The position numbers were made by a program, and so were the translations under genes. A stretch of DNA of 64,000 bases, taken from an uncultured virus (IMG/VR IMGVR_UViG_3300005336_000020). Its lineage: Duplodnaviria; Heunggongvirae; Uroviricota; Caudoviricetes. The stretch lies in IMG/VR virus record IMGVR_UViG_3300005336_000020; one strand, 5' to 3'. The notes beneath the pieces are model-generated. The model was given only the letters and a program-made list of their open reading frames with translations. It was not told the DNA's origin and ran no database searches. Below are positions 36,089-62,488 of this stretch, in pieces; the first letter of the stretch is position 1, and every line of letters starts with the position of its first letter.

Positions 36089-36322
36089 TTTTCCCTCACC
36101 TTCCCTGTGGGGCCGCCCTCCAGCGACCCCACAGATTCACCGGCCGGGACCGGCGGGCTTCAGTACCGGCAGCCCGTCGAGGTCGTCGTCCTTCTGGAAC
36201 ACGACTCGTCCCCTTTCCAAGCGGCTCGTTCGTCCGCTTCGTACCTTCGGCCGGATGCGAACCGACTTCCGGCCGGGATGAACCCGGCCGGGCTGCCACA
36301 CGGCAGCGAAGGCCCTCGTGCA

Positions 36323-56435: not shown

Positions 56436-58127
56436 TCACTGCATCCACGGCCACGGCGCGTTCTTGCCCTGCTCCAGGAGCTGGATCAGACCGAAGCTCG
56501 CATCCGACAGACCGCCGAAGCAGTGCCGGTTCGTGCCGCCGGTCTCCAGGATGGAACCGGCGTAGCCCGCCATGTTCCACAGGTAGACCGGGACGCTCTT
56601 CGGGATCAGGTCGTCGATCCGCGTCTCCGGCATGCCGTACGTGCGCCCGCCCATGTTCGACGGGAGCCAGCCCGGCCGCGACTGCTCGTCCGTGACGATC
56701 ACGACGCGGTTGAACTCGCTCGTGAAGTTGTCCTTCACGGCACGCGGGATGTCGGTCCCGTTGATCGACGGGCCGAAGCTCTCGACGATCTTCAGGACGC
56801 TCGCCCCGCGCGGCACGTCGACCGGGCGCGAACCGGCGCCGCCACCCCGGCTGTTGTAACCGCTGTACGCCTGGTCGCCGCCGAACTCGACGAGCTTGGC
56901 GTCCTGCGCCTTCACGGCCAGCGCCGCACCGAAGAGCGCCGCCTGGTCGGCCAGCGTGATGTCGCTCTTGTTCGGCGTCGAACCCCACATGCCCGGGAAC
57001 ATCGACGGGCTGCGGTCCACGAGGATCAGGGTCTTCCCCCGCAGGGTCGGAACCAGCTCCAGGGAGCCCGCCAGGCCCCGCTCCAGGGCGTTGCCCCAGC
57101 GCAGCGACGACAGGGCGCGGTAGGCCGACAGGAAGCGGTACGGGAAGAGCCGGGCCTTCCGCACCCGCTCGCCGTCCGAGAGCACCTTGGCCACGATGTC
57201 GGCCGAGGCGTCGGAGATACCCTCCTCGTCGAAGTTGCGCAGGTTCTTGATCAGCGCACCCGGCGCCATGGTCGGGATCATCGCCTCCCACAGCAGCTTC
57301 TTCTCGACCTTGCCACCCAGCTCGGACAGGACGTCCTCCCAGGTGAGACCGGCATCCTTGAGCACCTGCGGCGCGATGAGACCCGAGCCGTAGATGTACT
57401 CCGCCGACGCCTTCTTCGGGACGCTGGCCGCCGCCTGCCGCCACTCGCGCTGGTTGCGCGTCATCGACAGGCTCGGCGTGATCGCGCCGCCGTGGCCGTG
57501 GCGCCGGTCGAGGATCAGCCGGAACAGGTCCGACTGCCACTGGGCGCTCGGCACCGGGTGGACGATGTCGATCACGTCGGCGAAGCGGTACGCCCGGCGG
57601 GCCGAGTCGTACTTGGCGTACGAGTACTCCGTGTACAGACGCGTCACCGCGCGCTTCAGGCCGCGCTTGACCGCCTGGTAGCGCTTCGGCCACGCCTTGC
57701 CCGCGATCGAGAACCAGTACGCGATGAACTCGCCCGGCTCGTCGGCCCGCTGGAGCACGCCGTCGACCATGTCCTCGACACCGTCGTAGCGGTGCTGGTC
57801 GCAGAGCGTCTTCGCCGCCTCGGCCGCCGCGAGCAGCGACGTGGTGCGCATGTAGCCGTCGGTGCGCAGCCACGGAAGCATGTGCGTGACGTGCCACTGC
57901 TCCAGCAGGGCGGTGGCGTGCAGGAGGTCGACGTAGCGCTCGTTGCGGTCGTGAGCGCGCTCGTAGAACGTGTCCTTGGTGACGAGGTTGGACACCGAGA
58001 CCAGGTAGAGGTCCGACAGCGGGCTGCGGGTGAAGCCGCTTGCGCCCTCGAACGTCTTGGTCGTGCCCTCTGTCGTCACCTTCGAGGTGACGCGCGGCTT
58101 CGTCGTCGGCTTGTTGAACGTTGCCAT
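56436..58127 (-). CDS. rsr: Ro60/Rsr-type TROVE-domain RNA-binding protein with C-terminal vWA
   Basis: LYLVSVSNLV..DTFYE, WLR...MRT, LQRADEPGE, KYD, WEAMIPTM...ALIKNLRN, RLFPYRFLSAY (TROVE); LVDRSPSM MIDAS, VTDEQ, WNMAGY (vWA). Confidence 0.93.
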   Translation of the reverse strand: MATFNKPTTKPRVTSKVTTEGTTKTFEGASGFTRSPLSDLYLVSVSNLVTKDTFYERAHDRNERYVDLLHATALLEQWHVTHMLPWLRTDGYMRTTSLLAAAEAAKTLCDQHRYDGVEDMVDGVLQRADEPGEFIAYWFSIAGKAWPKRYQAVKRGLKRAVTRLYTEYSYAKYDSARRAYRFADVIDIVHPVPSAQWQSDLFRLILDRRHGHGGAITPSLSMTRNQREWRQAAASVPKKASAEYIYGSGLIAPQVLKDAGLTWEDVLSELGGKVEKKLLWEAMIPTMAPGALIKNLRNFDEEGISDASADIVAKVLSDGERVRKARLFPYRFLSAYRALSSLRWGNALERGLAGSLELVPTLRGKTLILVDRSPSMFPGMWGSTPNKSDITLADQAALFGAALAVKAQDAKLVEFGGDQAYSGYNSRGGGAGSRPVDVPRGASVLKIVESFGPSINGTDIPRAVKDNFTSEFNRVVIVTDEQSRPGWLPSNMGGRTYGMPETRIDDLIPKSVPVYLWNMAGYAGSILETGGTNRHCFGGLSDASFGLIQLLEQGKNAPWPWMQ

Positions 58128-58156
58128 GACCCTTCTTCCCTTTCCCTGAAAATGCG

Positions 58157-58187
58157 AAAACCCCCTGTCCCGGGTGGGAGCAGGGGG
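58157..58187 (-). terminator. Intrinsic terminator between the Y-RNA array and rsr
   Basis: Minus strand CCCCCTG...CAGGGGG followed by TTTT. Confidence 0.65.
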
Positions 58188-58201
58188 CGCATCTCGATGT
58201 A

Positions 58202-58379
58202 TGTGTGGGGTGCCCGGCCAACAGATAGGCCCCGGTGGTTCTTTCGAACCTTCCTCGACCAACGCTCTGCCAATTGAGCTATCCACGAGCACGCTCGCAG
58301 ATCAGGACTCGAACCTGAAACATTTGGTTCCACTGTGAAGTAACCGTTGCCAAGACGCTCCGGGCACCTCACCCACACA
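58202..58379 (-). ncRNA. YrlA-like Y RNA with a complete circularly permuted tRNA domain
   Basis: Closing stem; T arm UCAGG-UUCGAGU-CCUGA, then looped acceptor stem UCUGCGAG/CUCGUGGA, then D arm UAGCUCAAUUGGCAGAGC; ACCAA/UUGGU stem; adjacent to rsr. Confidence 0.85.
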
Positions 58380-58384
58380 CCGAG

Positions 58385-58550
58385 TAACAGAAGATCCAGA
58401 GGAGTCACCGGCCAACAATGCGAGCCCCGGTGTCTGCCAGTTATGCCATGCGTCGGCAGCGACGGGATTCGAACCCGCCCTCAGTTTCTTTTTCCAGAAG
58501 AAGTAACCGTTGCTCAAAACGCTCCGGTAACCCTTCTGGATCTTCCGTTA
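58385..58550 (-). ncRNA. Second Y-RNA-like unit with a degenerate tRNA domain
   Basis: Same scaffold motifs; T arm GCGGG-UUCGAAU-CCCGU and D-loop remnant UGGCAUAACUGGCAGAC; long closing stem AAGAUCCAGA/UCUGGAUCUU. Confidence 0.75.
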
Positions 58551-58630
58551 TGCGCCCCGGCCAACAAGATGGCGCCCGGTGTGTTCTCCGCATGATGAAG
58601 TAACCGTTCGCACTAACGCTCCGGGGTGCA
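58551..58630 (-). ncRNA. Third, minimal (80 nt) Y-RNA-like unit lacking a tRNA domain
   Basis: UGCACCCCGG/CCGGGGCGCA stem with the shared CCGGAGCG, AACGGUUACUUC, CACCGGG and UGUUGGCCGG motifs. Confidence 0.7.
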
Positions 58631-58636
58631 GATAAA

Positions 58637-58666
58637 ACATTACGGGATCCTGCGAGGGGATCGCAA
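58637..58666 (-). promoter_or_regulatory. Promoter TTGCGA-N18-TAATGT for the Y-RNA array
   Basis: The -10 element ends about 6 nt before unit 3; contains the TGCGA-N5-TCGCA palindrome. Confidence 0.6.
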
Positions 58667-58671
58667 GTCTT

Positions 58672-59163
58672 TTAGTACTCCTGCGGGGCGAGGATCCACG
58701 AGGCCCGCTCCTGCGTGGGCTCCATCCACAGGGCCCGCAGCGCATGGTGCAGGTAGCCGTCGTCCGGGAAGTCCACCCCGGGGATGTGGAGGTTGGGGTT
58801 CCACTCGAAGTTCGGCGTGATGCAGACCGGGGACCAGTCGTCGGCCCGGTACACCGAGCCCGTCAGCGCGAGGCCGTAGAACTGCGTGTTGGAGTGGCCG
58901 AACGTGATGATCTCCATCGAGCACCGCTCCTTCATCAGGGCCTCGGCGTTCTCGCGGGTGATCTCCTCCTCGGGCACCTCGTCGGCCAGCAGGACAGCTC
59001 GGCGCATGTGGTACTCGTACCCCTCGCCATCCTCGTCGGCCTCCATGTCGGCCTCGGCTTCCGTGAGCCAGTCCGGCTCGAACTCGTCGGCGTTCTTGAT
59101 GGCCCAGTCGCCGTCGCTCGGCACTCCCAGGCTGTACCCGTAGAACAGAACCGCCATCGACAT
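58672..59163 (-). CDS. Hypothetical acidic protein
   Basis: AGGAG RBS; 163 aa. Confidence 0.6.
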   Translation of the reverse strand: MSMAVLFYGYSLGVPSDGDWAIKNADEFEPDWLTEAEADMEADEDGEGYEYHMRRAVLLADEVPEEEITRENAEALMKERCSMEIITFGHSNTQFYGLALTGSVYRADDWSPVCITPNFEWNPNLHIPGVDFPDDGYLHHALRALWMEPTQERASWILAPQEY

Positions 59164-59223
59164 GTCGACTTATCTCCTGTACGACAGAGGGGGCCCGGCT
59201 GGGCCCCCTCGGGAACGTGCTGG

Positions 59224-59412
59224 TCAGGCGCTGATGTCCTCGCCGTTCTGCGACTTCTGCTCGGCCTGGCGCGACTGCACGGCCATCTCGCTCACCGTGC
59301 CCCCGTACTGGCCGGAGATCGTGCGGTACGCCTCGGCGGTGTGCCGCACATCGTCGGTGTCCAGGCTGGGGTGTGCCGCCTGGACGATCCTCTCGCTGGG
59401 TCGCTGTGCCAC
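59224..59412 (-). CDS. Small hypothetical protein
   Basis: GGGAG RBS, GTG start. Confidence 0.45.
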   Translation of the reverse strand: MAQRPSERIVQAAHPSLDTDDVRHTAEAYRTISGQYGGTVSEMAVQSRQAEQKSQNGEDISA

Positions 59413-59426
59413 TTCGCGTTCTCCCT

Positions 59427-60173
59427 TCAGACGCGGACGATGCCCTGCTGGCGGGCCTGCGCCAGCCAGGTGGGGAACTCGGTCATGAGCCGGTTGTACA
59501 GGGTGCTGTCGGTCATCGTGGTGGGATCGGTGCCCACCGCGAAGAAGTCCGAGTTGTCGATCGGCCGGTACTGCGGGACCGGGATGTCGTCGAGGCGCTG
59601 GAGGAAGCCCAGGCCGTCCTCGTCGTCGTAGTCGTACGGGCGGTCCTCGCCGAAGCCCACGAACTGCCAGAAGATCGGCAGCGTGGCGTACTGGCAGATC
59701 CGCTGGGCGGCGGCCTTCTTGTCCCACGGCGATCCGTCGGTCTGGAAGATGACGTAGGCGGGGACGCTCTTGCCGCTGGACTGGTAGTGCCGCACCACGG
59801 CGTCCATGGCGACGGTGTAGTCCGTGCCGCCCATCTGACCGAGCTTGGCGTGCGCCTTGGCGATCTTGCCCTGGTGCTGCCCGAGCACCAGCTCGTCCAT
59901 GCCCTTCAGGGTGTGGTCGAAGAACACGACCGGCACACGGCCGTCGTCCTCGAAGTGGGCCGCCATGCCCAGAATCCGCTCGGCGAAGTACTGGACGTGG
60001 CCGTGGCGGTAGTGACCGCGATGCGGGAAGTCCATCGAACCGGAACGGTCGAGCACCAGGTAGACGGCCGCCCGCTCGCCCTCCAGCCCGTGCTTGTTCG
60101 CCGCGAACCCGGCCTTCTGGTACGGCCTCTCCAGGTCGGGAGCGATGTCCCGGATTTTCTCTACGGTGATCAT
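59427..60173 (-). CDS. vWA-domain protein (TerF-like vWA)
   Basis: VYLVLDRSGSM MIDAS, GGTDY, IFQTDG, LPIFWQFVGFG, DNSDFF. Confidence 0.85.
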   Translation of the reverse strand: MITVEKIRDIAPDLERPYQKAGFAANKHGLEGERAAVYLVLDRSGSMDFPHRGHYRHGHVQYFAERILGMAAHFEDDGRVPVVFFDHTLKGMDELVLGQHQGKIAKAHAKLGQMGGTDYTVAMDAVVRHYQSSGKSVPAYVIFQTDGSPWDKKAAAQRICQYATLPIFWQFVGFGEDRPYDYDDEDGLGFLQRLDDIPVPQYRPIDNSDFFAVGTDPTTMTDSTLYNRLMTEFPTWLAQARQQGIVRV

Positions 60174-60199
60174 TCTGTCTCTTCAGACCTTTCCGAGGG

Positions 60200-60388
60200 T
60201 CAGCGCTTCTTGACGGGTCGGGCCCACTGCTCCGGCGGAACGCCGCTCATCCTGGCCTGCGGGCGCTCGGGAACCTCCGTGCGCGCGAGCTGACTGGAGC
60301 CGTAGCTGCCGATGGAGTGGGCCTGCGTTGCACTGGGGCCCGAGTCCACCTGCTCCGATGCGGCATCCAGGGCGTCGGCGTCAGACAT
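60200..60388 (-). CDS. Small hypothetical protein
   Basis: GAAGG RBS; 62 aa. Confidence 0.4.
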   Translation of the reverse strand: MSDADALDAASEQVDSGPSATQAHSIGSYGSSQLARTEVPERPQARMSGVPPEQWARPVKKR

Positions 60389-60519
60389 ATGCACCTTCCT
60401 GCCAGGCGAGCAGAACCTGCTGCTCGCGGTACTCGTCCAGTTCCTCTCGCGAGAGGAATGTGATTCCGTCCTCGCGGATGACGACCGGCGCCTCCGCCTT
60501 CTTCTCCTCACCGTTCACG

Positions 60520-60638
60520 TGTGCACGACGGGATTCGAACCCGTGGGCTATCCAGAGATTCCCAGCTCCAGCCAGCCGCCTGCCTCCACCCCTGGGAGGG
60601 ATTCAGCAAGCCCCTTTAGGCCGCTCAGGCACATGCAC
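60520..60638 (-). ncRNA. Class II (Ser-like) tRNA-shaped RNA with expanded anticodon loop
   Basis: Acceptor GUGCAUG/CGUGCAC, D arm CCU-GAGCGGCCUAA-AGG, T arm ACGGG-UUCGAAU-CCCGU; anticodon stem GCUUG/CAGGC enclosing 24 nt; long variable arm. Confidence 0.7.
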
Positions 60639-60722
60639 CGCCGGACCCGTTAGTCCGGCCCAGGTTCCGCTTTCAGGAGTTCTACGCGGAACCGTCCGAT
60701 TCATCTTCCACTCCAACCGGAG

Positions 60723-60807
60723 AGCCCATGACGGGATTTGAACCCGCGTCTCCATCCGCTGGCATGATCCAGTAGGACGATGTGCTTGGCCGCTACACCA
60801 CATGGGC
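60723..60807 (-). ncRNA. Class I (Glu/Gly-like) tRNA-shaped RNA with expanded anticodon loop
   Basis: Acceptor GCCCAUG/CAUGGGC, D arm GUGU-AGCGGCCAA-GCAC, T arm GCGGG-UUCAAAU-CCCGU; anticodon stem UCGUC/GAUGG enclosing 19 nt with hairpin CUGG-AUCAUG-CCAG. Confidence 0.75.
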
Positions 60808-60961
60808 GCTCGGTGTCCTGCCGATCACCGAGCGGGCGGATTCCGTGGCGCCGGGTGCCACCCGGCGGTGCCTCCTCCACGAAACCCTCTTTGGCGTGCA
60901 CCCCGCCGCCGACTTTCTCAGCCGAAAGCGGGGGTAAAGCGGACCTGTAATTCAGGTCCAG

Positions 60962-61035
60962 TTGGCAGGGAGAGATTTGAACTCTCGACCTCGGGATTAT
61001 CAGTCCCGTGCTCTAACCATCTGAGCTACCTGCCA
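60962..61035 (-). tRNA. tRNA-Ile(GAU), CCA not encoded
   Basis: Canonical cloverleaf: UGGCAGG/CCUGCCA, D GCUC/GAGC, anticodon CGGGA-CUGAUAA-UCCCG, T GAGAG-UUCAAAU-CUCUC. Confidence 0.92.
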
Positions 61036-61146
61036 GTGATCCATCCGGAAGCGTGTCGGACCGCCTCCGGTGGATCGGTGCGCCGAGCCGGGCCGTAACC
61101 GGCTCGGAGCGTTTCGCCCGGGTGTCGGATTCCCGAACTAAGTGAA

Positions 61147-61176
61147 ACTCTACCGGGTGTTGCTGGCCTAGGTCAA
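61147..61176 (-). promoter_or_regulatory. Promoter TTGACC-N18-TAGAGT overlapping the GGCCTAGGTC palindrome, driving the tRNA cluster
   Basis: Close to the Streptomyces HrdB-type consensus. Confidence 0.7.
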
Positions 61177-61186
61177 CCGATCCGGG

Positions 61187-62488
61187 TCAGACCGCGAGCC
61201 GGAAGTTCTCCCCGTCCGCAACGATCAGGCCCTCGCGGGTGAACGACCGCAGGAAACGACTGGCCTGCGTCGCCCCGCAGCCCGTGTGGGTCGCCAGGAG
61301 AGCCGGGGTCCAGACGGCCTGCGGCTGGCTCCGCAGCACCCGCAGCGCGACATCCCGGGGGTACTTGCCACGGCCGTGGTCCGGGTGCGCCAGAAGGGCC
61401 ACCATCTCGTCCGTGACGGTCCAGGTGCGCACGAGGTTGGGGCCGTGCACGTTGAGGTAGCCGTGCCCACGGAAGCGGGGGCCGCGCGGAAGGAAGTGCG
61501 GTTCCACTCCGGCGCCCGGACCGAGCACGGTGTCGGTGTTCTGCGGGGTGTTGACGCGAAGGCAGAACGAGAAGTCGAAGTTCGTGCGGATGCCCGAGGT
61601 GATGCCCCGGTCGTCGCCCGAGCGGAGCGGGTTCTGGGTCATCCACATGATGATGATCTCGCGCGAGCGGCCCTGGCTGGACAGCTCGGTGAGCTTCTGC
61701 ATCACGGACTTGTCGGGGCCTTCGAGGAAGGCGTACTCCTCGTCGCCCTTCGGCGCCTTGCCGCGCCGCTTGTCCTCGTCGATCACGGCCTGAAGGACGG
61801 AGTAGCCCTCGTCGATCGGAATGAGCCTGCGCGGGCCGAGCTTCAGATCCCACTTGGAGATCCCGAGCTTGGCCATCTGGGCGGCCCGGTCCTCCATTCG
61901 GGCGTGCTCGCGCTCGATCATCTCGATGATCTCTTCATGGGTCACGGCGCAGGTGCAGATGCCGCGCCAGACCGTGGCCTCCTCACCCTTGCCGTCGATG
62001 AAGCCGCCCAGTTCCTCGTCGGGGTGGACGACCGCGCGGGCCATGAGGGCGCGCGTGGACCAGCTCTTCCCGGAGCCGGAGGCGCCGCCGACCAGCAGGC
62101 GTTCGTTGCGCGGGACGTCGACCTCTTCACCCGTGACCGTGTCGAGTCCGAGCGTGGTGATGTCGGGGTGCCAGAACATGTCCAGCTCGTCGGTGATGTA
62201 CCGGGTACGAACCGCGAACAGCACGCGGGAGGACCGGCCGCCGGGGGACAGGTCGCTCAGGTGCTCGTCGAGCACGTCGAGCATGGCGCGTATGGCCTGG
62301 TGCTTGACACGCAGCTCCTTGAGCATGTCGCGCCCGTCGAGCTTGAGCACGGCGACAACGCCGGACTCGGTCAGCTTCGCGGAGTCCAGGTTCACGCCGC
62401 GCAGGCCGCGCGCCTTCGCCTGCGGGTTCCAGTACTCAGGCGTGAGCAGGTCCAGCAGGCGCAGTTCCTCTTCAGTCGCTACCAGCAC
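61187..62488 (-). CDS. FtsK/SpoIIIE-family ATPase (TraB-like) with C-terminal wHTH
   Basis: LLVGGASGSGKS, IDGKG, IPIDEG, GRSREI...TQNP, IRTNF and GHGY motifs. Confidence 0.85.
   Translation of the reverse strand: MLVATEEELRLLDLLTPEYWNPQAKARGLRGVNLDSAKLTESGVVAVLKLDGRDMLKELRVKHQAIRAMLDVLDEHLSDLSPGGRSSRVLFAVRTRYITDELDMFWHPDITTLGLDTVTGEEVDVPRNERLLVGGASGSGKSWSTRALMARAVVHPDEELGGFIDGKGEEATVWRGICTCAVTHEEIIEMIEREHARMEDRAAQMAKLGISKWDLKLGPRRLIPIDEGYSVLQAVIDEDKRRGKAPKGDEEYAFLEGPDKSVMQKLTELSSQGRSREIIIMWMTQNPLRSGDDRGITSGIRTNFDFSFCLRVNTPQNTDTVLGPGAGVEPHFLPRGPRFRGHGYLNVHGPNLVRTWTVTDEMVALLAHPDHGRGKYPRDVALRVLRSQPQAVWTPALLATHTGCGATQASRFLRSFTREGLIVADGENFRLAV

Follow-up and report, generated by a model that had tools for sequence, protein, structure and literature searches.

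A non-decoding, tRNA-shaped RNA of 119 nucleotides in the RNA island of Streptomyces phage Frankenweenie and its relatives

What purpose can a transfer RNA (tRNA) shape serve in a bacteriophage when the part of it that should read codons has been rebuilt into something else? This question is raised by a 119-nucleotide (nt) element at positions 60520-60638, on the minus strand, of a 64,000-nt stretch of DNA from an uncultured virus (IMG/VR record IMGVR_UViG_3300005336_000020). The whole of this stretch is called the window below; it is part of Streptomyces phage Frankenweenie (OQ921725; 100% identity). The element had been pointed out in a sequence-only reading of the window, the coordinates and letters of which were correct when read on the minus strand. 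We found that it has a complete tRNA body, conserved among related phages, and no usable anticodon. With moderate confidence, we regard it as an excised, non-decoding phage tRNA mimic that punctuates a long transcript and has a second role in trans, exerted through its remodelled arms.

The element was compared with its counterparts in related phages. Seven of 50,697 phage records keep this stretch (Frankenweenie, Kradal, Satis, Quantum, EhyElimayoE, JustBecause and Kela; 78.6-82.1% identity to the window). Further variants were found through the neighboring FtsK-like protein and through DNA patterns, in five IMG/VR contigs and six metagenome contigs; three of nine metagenome pattern matches were due to chance. 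In all, the RNA is represented by 10 distinct sequences, from cluster BM phages and soil contigs. Satis and JustBecause founded cluster BM with a mutual average nucleotide identity of only 74.4% (PMC6687918).

The acceptor stem, D arm and T arm (helices 1, 2 and 7) are 100% paired over the 10 variants, with double-sided changes in each. Three of the seven acceptor pairs and three of the five T-stem pairs change on both sides, and the D-stem pair 12-24 is C-G in five variants and U-A in five. The letters of the tRNA core, i.e., U8, A14, G15, the D-loop GG (G18G19), C48 and the T-loop UUCRAAU, are invariant in an 8-row alignment and in the 10 distinct rows; the sole change in the T loop is G or A at its fourth letter. 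All 10 variants have A as the discriminator; in the window, CGU follows it, so that CCA is not encoded in the genome.

The anticodon arm departs from this pattern. Its stem, GCUUG/CAGGC, encloses 24 nt, CUGAAUCCCUCCCAGGGGUGGAGG, instead of an anticodon loop. The sequence-only reading had described a 24-nt anticodon loop; the length stands, with 24 nt between the stem strands in 10/10 variants, but the segment is not an open loop, as it folds into a covarying mini-hairpin, and a 7-nt loop with U33 and an anticodon is missing from every variant. From the stem outward, the hairpin consists of (i) a possible extension of the stem by a C-G and a U-G pair, both invariant and hence without support from covariation; (ii) a purine internal loop, GAA opposite GRG, three nucleotides against three; (iii) a mini-stem of 4 base pairs (bp; helix 4), all four of which change on both sides; and (iv) a hexaloop at 60592-60597, UYCCAG (UACCAG in variant L175). 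The letters CUGAA, U42, CCAG and G53/G55/G56 are fixed, and 13 of the 24 columns are invariant. The variable arm is likewise structured: double-sided changes occur at seven of the 12 pairs of its helix (helix 6), a mismatch is found almost always at one position, and the letters CUGG of its loop never vary. The RNA is not a decoding tRNA, and it has no usable anticodon.

Double-sided changes were seen at 19 of the 43 pairs altogether. The fraction of paired cells over the 10 variants was 95.6%, compared to 35.5-45.6% when the partners were slid by one to three columns, and none of 500 shuffles reached the observed values. The 10-variant alignment was fitted to the model; plain MAFFT alignments of seven and eight sequences reproduced its columns, with similar numbers. 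A covariance model trained on seven variants recovered variant L009, which was absent from the model, with 126.5 bits (E about 2e-24), and the model R1 scores 127.3 bits in the window and 116-139 bits at 13 other places. On these comparisons, the 119-nt RNA is real and under selection. The sequence-only reading had suggested selection for anticodon-less tRNAs, and the covariation in every arm together with the invariant loop letters of the 10 variants bears this out; it had also said that the idea would fall if the arms were unconserved among related phages, and they are conserved across all 10.

Several simpler accounts of the element were rejected. A decayed pseudogene is contradicted by the covariation and the invariant loops. 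A protein-coding stretch was considered, as CDS 140 (coding sequence) of Kela extends across the RNA; the triplet TGA at 60603-60605 closes the gp153 frame in Frankenweenie, indels of 1 nt separate variants in the D loop and the variable loop, and substitutions track base pairs. As for a phage attachment site copied from a host tRNA, 45 bits was the highest score of any tRNA of the host with the model R1, and no integrase is annotated nearby.

Annotation of the element is inconsistent, and current phage annotation misreads it. The GenBank record of Frankenweenie has no feature at 60520-60638, and ARAGORN, applied to the window, makes no tRNA call there. Rfam 15 calls no family for this interval; its tRNA model (RF00005) matches the T arm locally with 14.2 bits, below the gathering cut-off of 29 bits. 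The same RNA is entered as a 72-nt tRNA-Ser in JustBecause (L003 4017-4088) and lies under a CDS in Kela (L004 2974-3219). The 72-nt "tRNA-Ser(gga)" that ARAGORN reports in JustBecause, Kela and L005 takes the loop of the variable arm for an anticodon loop; we rejected this call because the supposed triplet is GGA, GGG or GGU among close relatives, the stem that carries it has 12 bp, and 1 nt leads from it to the T arm.

The family appears to be confined to cluster BM-like Streptomyces phages and, within the collections searched, to phages only. The model R1 gave no match in 121 Streptomyces genomes (E 1e-6; strict filters, 30 candidates scored per genome), two DNA patterns gave none in a bacterial genome collection, and no member was found with R1 in the phages Atuin, GiJojo and VanLee.

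The tRNA body resembles more than one host tRNA. The D-arm motif occurs among 110 ARAGORN calls in tRNA-Ser (79), tRNA-Tyr (11), tRNA-Leu (7), tRNA-Cys (7) and tRNA-Thr (6). In one Streptomyces rimosus genome, the model R1 ranks tRNA-Tyr(GUA) first, with 45.0 bits, and tRNA-Ser(UGA) second, with 42.0 bits; the D arm of the 119-nt RNA matches both nearly letter for letter. The T loop UUCGAAU and the discriminator A are those of S. rimosus tRNA-Tyr. The long variable arm of class II is present, longer than in the S. rimosus tRNA-Ser genes, and the letters of the acceptor stem are unlike those of any Ser, Leu or Tyr tRNA of this genome. Thus, of the earlier label "class II, Ser-like", the class II body is retained, whereas the likeness to tRNA-Ser is no better than that to tRNA-Tyr. 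The remark that the discriminator is A instead of the usual G was accurate, G following the acceptor stem in all four S. rimosus tRNA-Ser genes.

These features bear on the question of whether the RNA could be charged. Seryl- and leucyl-tRNA synthetases (SerRS and LeuRS) do not read the anticodon, and one of them might aminoacylate the RNA, which would then serve as a non-decoding donor or act on the ribosome in the manner of a transfer-messenger RNA (tmRNA). The class II body, the intact acceptor stem and elbow and the invariant discriminator would suit such a substrate. We nevertheless consider it quite improbable: the discriminator is not the G of the four Streptomyces tRNA-Ser genes examined, the acceptor letters are unlike those of the host Ser, Leu and Tyr tRNAs, and a variable arm of 32 nt is far longer than theirs. 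In addition, no synthetase, transferase or SmpB-like gene lies nearby, and ARAGORN finds no tmRNA in the window.

Another way to rescue a decoding function is to assume that a short insert is removed, leaving a working tRNA. A single excision, of columns 38-54, does give the same 7-nt loop in all 10 variants, CUGAAGG, with the anticodon GAA. Nevertheless, an intron-bearing tRNA seems extremely unlikely to us. By inspection, the insert has no bulge-helix-bulge, as its 3-nt strands face each other without the 4-bp stagger; a group I intron would need far more than 17-24 nt, and no Rfam intron family matched the 119-nt RNA at E 10. Other excision points give anticodons that differ between close relatives. 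Frankenweenie already encodes a normal tRNA-Phe(GAA), we know of no class II tRNA-Phe, and an RNA ligase is absent from most carriers. No excision yields a plausible working tRNA.

If the RNA does not decode, its position may be informative. The gene gp153, the first of a small-protein operon, starts immediately after it. This is a real gene: its core, (E/I)DG-x-TFLS...YREQK, is kept in 10/10 variants and in the outgroup, although no Pfam or PHROG family matched it. The statement that its GTG open reading frame begins 2 nt past the discriminator, without a ribosome binding site, was correct, as no Shine-Dalgarno (SD) sequence occurs in the 20 nt upstream. The GUG abuts the discriminator in 9 of 10 variants, where A-C-GUG-AAC-G never varies and the T arm and the acceptor strand make up the 20 nt upstream. 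Two cases differ. In L009 the GUG is lost, and the gp153 homologue starts at an ATG after a 23-nt leader with GGGAG; in the outgroup G002/L010, which is without the 119-nt RNA, the GUG of the homologue is also preceded by GGGAG. SD sequences occur in exactly those cases in which the start codon is not directly preceded by the tRNA shape, a pattern that fits a near-leaderless mRNA made by 3' processing. The suggestion of a leaderless mRNA, already made from the window alone, thus gains support from the comparison, and we infer that gp153 is probably translated in this way.

A variation on this theme is that the tRNA shape is not cut at all and acts in cis, as a 5' leader bound by a tRNA-binding protein that controls translation of gp153. 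The thrS operator offers an analogue. The start codon 2 nt from the acceptor end in 9/10 variants is what such control might use, and a contig from an RNA library that spans unprocessed upstream junctions points weakly the same way. Conversely, L009 has a separate leader with its own SD and keeps the RNA at 126.5 bits all the same, and an intact tRNA top half would be expected to be cut. We therefore rate a cis-acting leader as highly improbable.

The surroundings of the RNA are summarized in Table 1. Everything from position 61176 to the Ro gene lies on the minus strand, in the following order: a promoter-like site, tRNA-Ile, tRNA-like RNA 1, a spacer, the 119-nt RNA, gp153 to gp149, Y-RNA-like units and Ro60. 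The promoter-like site is the only match between 58000 and 61400 (shuffles, mean 0.5), and its hexamers, TTGACC and TAGAGT, recur in Kradal, JustBecause and the outgroup L010.

Table 1. Features of the RNA island, in order along the minus strand (positions in the window)
Feature	Positions	Strand	Remarks
Promoter-like site TTGACC-18-TAGAGT	61147-61176	-	Just after FtsK-like gene
tRNA-Ile(GAU), canonical	60961-61035	-	ARAGORN; Rfam 75.3 bits; first RNA of the island
tRNA-like RNA 1	60723-60807	-	Rfam tRNA 44.6 bits with 17-nt insert; ARAGORN "tRNA-???"; 84 nt upstream of the 119-nt RNA
Structured spacer RNA	60639-60722	-	84 nt; three hairpins, GUAGA loop motif, conserved CUGGG linker
tRNA-like RNA 2 (the 119-nt RNA)	60520-60638	-	Class II tRNA body without anticodon; model R1 127.3 bits
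Acceptor stem, 5' strand	60632-60638	-	7 bp with 60521-60527; GUGCAUG/CGUGCAC; discriminator A at 60520
D arm	60613-60629	-	3-bp stem; loop with GG
24-nt anticodon-loop replacement	60583-60606	-	C-G and U-G pairs, 3x3 purine loop, 4-bp mini-stem, hexaloop
Variable arm	60546-60577	-	32 nt; 12-bp helix; 7-8-nt loop beginning CUGG (60558-60565)
T arm	60528-60544	-	5-bp stem; ACGGG-UUCGAAU-CCCGU
gp153, 45 amino acids	60381-60518	-	GUG start 2 nt after discriminator; first gene of small-protein operon; annotated CDS
gp151, vWA-TerF-like	59427-60173	-	Pfam E 3e-54; annotated hypothetical
Three tandem Y-RNA-like units	58212-58640	-	Upstream of Ro gene; two repeat families, 3 copies each
Ro60-like gp147	56436-58127	-	TROVE domain, Pfam E 1e-13; annotated "Ro-like RNA binding protein"

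The neighbor of the 119-nt RNA, tRNA-like RNA 1, has an unrelated scaffold that is altered in the same kind of way, as the sequence-only reading had said. Its anticodon "loop" is an insert of 17 nt that folds as CUGG-N6-CCAG. In relatives, this arm is a 17-nt CUGG-N6-CCAG hairpin, a GUG triloop (Kradal, where it is annotated as tRNA-His) or an 8-nt loop (L009), and ARAGORN names the RNA "???", Pyl or His across the phages. In the outgroup G002/L010, the slot holds a 72-nt RNA that ARAGORN calls tRNA-Arg. The spacer between the two tRNA shapes has no Rfam match (60639-60722) and is structured: in an RNAalifold prediction from six sequences, pairing is maintained at 10 of the 21 predicted pairs although both partners change. 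A longer version of it occurs in JustBecause and L009. As a separate observation, G002, a 260-kb relative, has two more aberrant tRNA-shaped RNAs in its tRNA cluster (L138:1501-1618 and L139:1501-1627), of 118 and 127 nt, with inserts of 48 and 59 nt around the anticodon and variable region; ARAGORN calls neither.

Downstream, gp153 to gp149 form the small-protein operon, in which no family was matched apart from gp151. The relatives of gp151 in Streptomyces chromosomes are 47-51% identical to it, and the operon as found in Kradal and JustBecause lacks this gene.

The gene order allows an economical account, in which a degenerate tRNA survives purely as a handle: RNase P and 3' processing would act on it and thereby give defined ends to the spacer RNA and the gp153 mRNA. 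The structured spacer flanked by tRNA-shaped elements, the GUG that abuts the RNA in 9/10 variants and the outgroup tRNA-Arg call in the slot of tRNA-like RNA 1 all agree with it. tRNA-like RNA 1 tolerates anticodon loops of 3, 8 and 17 nt, as a mere handle would. The difficulty is that a handle requires only the acceptor/T-arm half. The anticodon arm of the 119-nt RNA has its 13 invariant columns and covarying pairs, and the variable arm its seven double-sided changes and invariant CUGG; punctuation alone is possible and, in our judgment, rather unlikely. A role in trans is argued because precisely those parts that processing does not need are conserved, namely the insert columns, the CUGG loop and the covarying stems; the anticodon arm of tRNA-like RNA 1, which drifts freely, provides the contrast.

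We propose the following sequence of events for an excised tRNA mimic with such a second role. A long transcript would start at the conserved promoter-like site and run through the RNAs and the operon as far as the Y-RNA-like units that precede the Ro60 gene. The 119-nt RNA would be cut from it by RNase P and the 3' tRNA-processing pathway of the host, as we infer because the 7-bp acceptor stem, the T arm and the letters of the D/T elbow are all kept. Cleavage at its 5' end would set the spacer RNA free, and cleavage at its 3' end would give a near-leaderless gp153 mRNA with its GUG 1 nt from the new 5' end. The freed RNA, about 119 nt long before any addition of CCA, would be a stable tRNA mimic. 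There is a parallel in the Mycobacterium smegmatis YrlA RNA, also a tRNA mimic, which RNase P cleaves and to which CCA is added in vivo (PMC4201824).

In the last step, the CCAG and CUGG loops would probably pair, and the rebuilt arms would form a sequence-specific platform for a partner. The hexaloop CCAG and the variable-loop CUGG are complementary, and both are invariant; hence, they may form a kissing helix. The next pair outward, 43-78, is C-G in four variants, U-A in one (Kradal) and A-U in one (L175), and the CUGGG of the spacer does not follow the changes at 43-78. A comparable arrangement, two adjacent hairpins that kiss through their loops, is known from the Alu domain of the signal recognition particle. 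This evidence is suggestive, no more.

Several points weigh against the proposed mimic. As to the loop-loop contact, the pair 43-78 is unpaired in four of the 10 variants, the other four kissing pairs never vary and are uninformative either way, and CUGG and CCAG are common words here, each occurring about once per 119 nt of the genome. As to punctuation, a 3' cut would leave one extra C before the GUG, which Streptomyces ribosomes would have to accept, and L009 demonstrates that abutment is not essential to the 119-nt RNA. As to the RNA itself, its folding energy as a single sequence is ordinary (z -1.03; 28 of 200 shuffles fold as well), so that the evidence for it is comparative, not thermodynamic. 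The only signal in RNA libraries is a 185-nt contig (run X15) covering 60569-60753, which spans tRNA-like RNA 1 and the spacer and reaches into the 119-nt RNA; if it is RNA, it represents an unprocessed form, it may be carry-over of DNA, and contigs cannot show ends. Finally, the link to Ro is weak: the Kradal-type Ro protein is only 36.8% identical to that of Frankenweenie at an identity of about 74-79% for the 119-nt RNA, and the RNA has no CGAA-type Ro motif outside its T loop.

tRNA mimics are found beside Ro60 genes elsewhere. The 119-nt RNA and gp147 share one strand, with the RNA 2.4 kb upstream, and like YrlA RNAs it is encoded less than 4 kb from a Ro60 gene; its order is that of a normal tRNA with an open acceptor end, not the permuted order of YrlA, in which the ends lie in a Ro-binding stem. 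Between the two are the Y-RNA-like units, 2 kb downstream of the 119-nt RNA. Each unit begins with CCGGAGCGU...GC(G)AACGGUUACUUC and ends with UUGUUGGCCGG. The last one is of the YrlA type, with a T arm, then a closed acceptor hairpin and then a D arm; the Rfam YrlA model gives it 30.8 bits (58256-58326), less than the cut-off of 69 bits. The motif GNCGAAN0-1G was not found on the minus strand of 58100-61200, which is a weak test, as the local Y-like units have GC(G)AACGG instead; the only CGAA in the 119-nt RNA is that of the T loop.

Two annotated tRNAs of this phage can be commented on here. GenBank has a "tRNA-Pro(tgg)" at 58293-58383, an ARAGORN call that overlaps the last Y-RNA-like unit; it is probably wrong, because this unit matches YrlA and has no Rfam tRNA match. 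Similarly, "tRNA-Sec(tca)" at 36241-36313 (minus strand), another ARAGORN call, has no Rfam tRNA match even at E 10 and is thus likely a false call in GC-rich DNA.

Given this neighborhood, the RNA might be a decoy or cofactor in a conflict that involves Ro60/Y-RNA and tRNA damage, binding either a host tRNA-binding factor, for example a tRNA-cutting defense nuclease, or the phage Ro60 particle. It shares one island and one strand with the Ro60 gene and three Y-RNA-like units, and Ro genes of other actinophages are also found among tRNA genes, within tRNA clusters. Binding of phage Y-like RNAs and of the host polynucleotide phosphorylase (PNPase) has been shown for a phage Ro60 (PMC12135203). 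An RNA ligase (PF09414) stands beside Ro in JustBecause and Kela. These are the only two of the seven phage records with the RNA that have it, and the ligase was rejected as an obligate partner, as among Streptomyces phages it occurs only in these two; its nearest phage relatives are in Nodularia phages. The RNA has neither a Ro-binding motif nor the YrlA architecture. Moreover, the Ro gene has been exchanged within the cluster: compared to that of Frankenweenie, the Kradal-type Ro is 36.8% identical and the JustBecause Ro 73.4%, and the 119-nt RNA is 70-83% identical throughout, despite this exchange. A tight pairing of the RNA with one Ro protein is unlikely because the Ro type has been exchanged and the RNA has changed little. 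In view of these points, we consider the decoy unlikely.

A bolder form of the tRNA mimic with a role in trans combines these elements. The anticodon arm and the giant variable arm would be joined loop to loop into a ring-like platform. After excision by the tRNA enzymes of the host, this platform would work in trans, either as a decoy or as an adaptor, on a host tRNA-binding factor or on the Ro60/Y-RNA particle of the phage, and the same cut would launch a leaderless mRNA. We put this forward tentatively, as a possibility only; if true, it would combine tRNA punctuation in a bacteriophage with a functional tRNA mimic.

The 119-nt RNA is absent from Rfam 15, and we found no description of it in the papers that our literature searches turned up. 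Its kind is already known: it is a non-decoding tRNA mimic in a phage RNA island, for example YrlA. YrlA Y RNAs (RF02553; Chen et al. 2014, PMC4201824) are also non-decoding, copy the D arm, T arm and acceptor stem, and lie at most 4 kb from Ro60 on the same strand; however, they are circularly permuted, end at the place of the anticodon, and have a loop-closed acceptor and a CGAA-type Ro motif. The 119-nt RNA, in contrast, is unpermuted, with an open acceptor, a closed and remodelled anticodon arm and a 12-bp variable arm, and it has no Rfam YrlA score. With Streptomyces tRNA-Tyr and tRNA-Ser it shares a near-identical D arm and a long variable arm, and with tRNA-Tyr the T loop and discriminator A; it differs from these class II tRNAs in being without a 7-nt anticodon loop, in its 32-nt variable arm, in unrelated acceptor letters and in falling below the Rfam cut-off.

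A further comparison is with mitochondrial tRNA punctuation and with MALAT1/mascRNA, in which RNase P and RNase Z cut long transcripts at tRNA shapes. The likeness is in the use of a tRNA shape as a cutting signal, after which the downstream mRNA begins at or beside its start codon, as it may do here by analogy. Those systems are organellar or eukaryotic, whereas the present one belongs to a bacteriophage and has distal arms with conserved sequence that processing does not need. What is new is the design: the unpermuted order, the closed, irregular anticodon arm, the 12-bp variable arm and a possible loop-loop helix. tRNA mimics beside Ro60 genes have been known since 2014. The present family adds a second design, an unpermuted one; its phages can be propagated on laboratory strains of Streptomyces and are thus accessible to experiment. 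The family also makes a comparative case for tRNA-shaped punctuation that may produce a leaderless mRNA in a phage.

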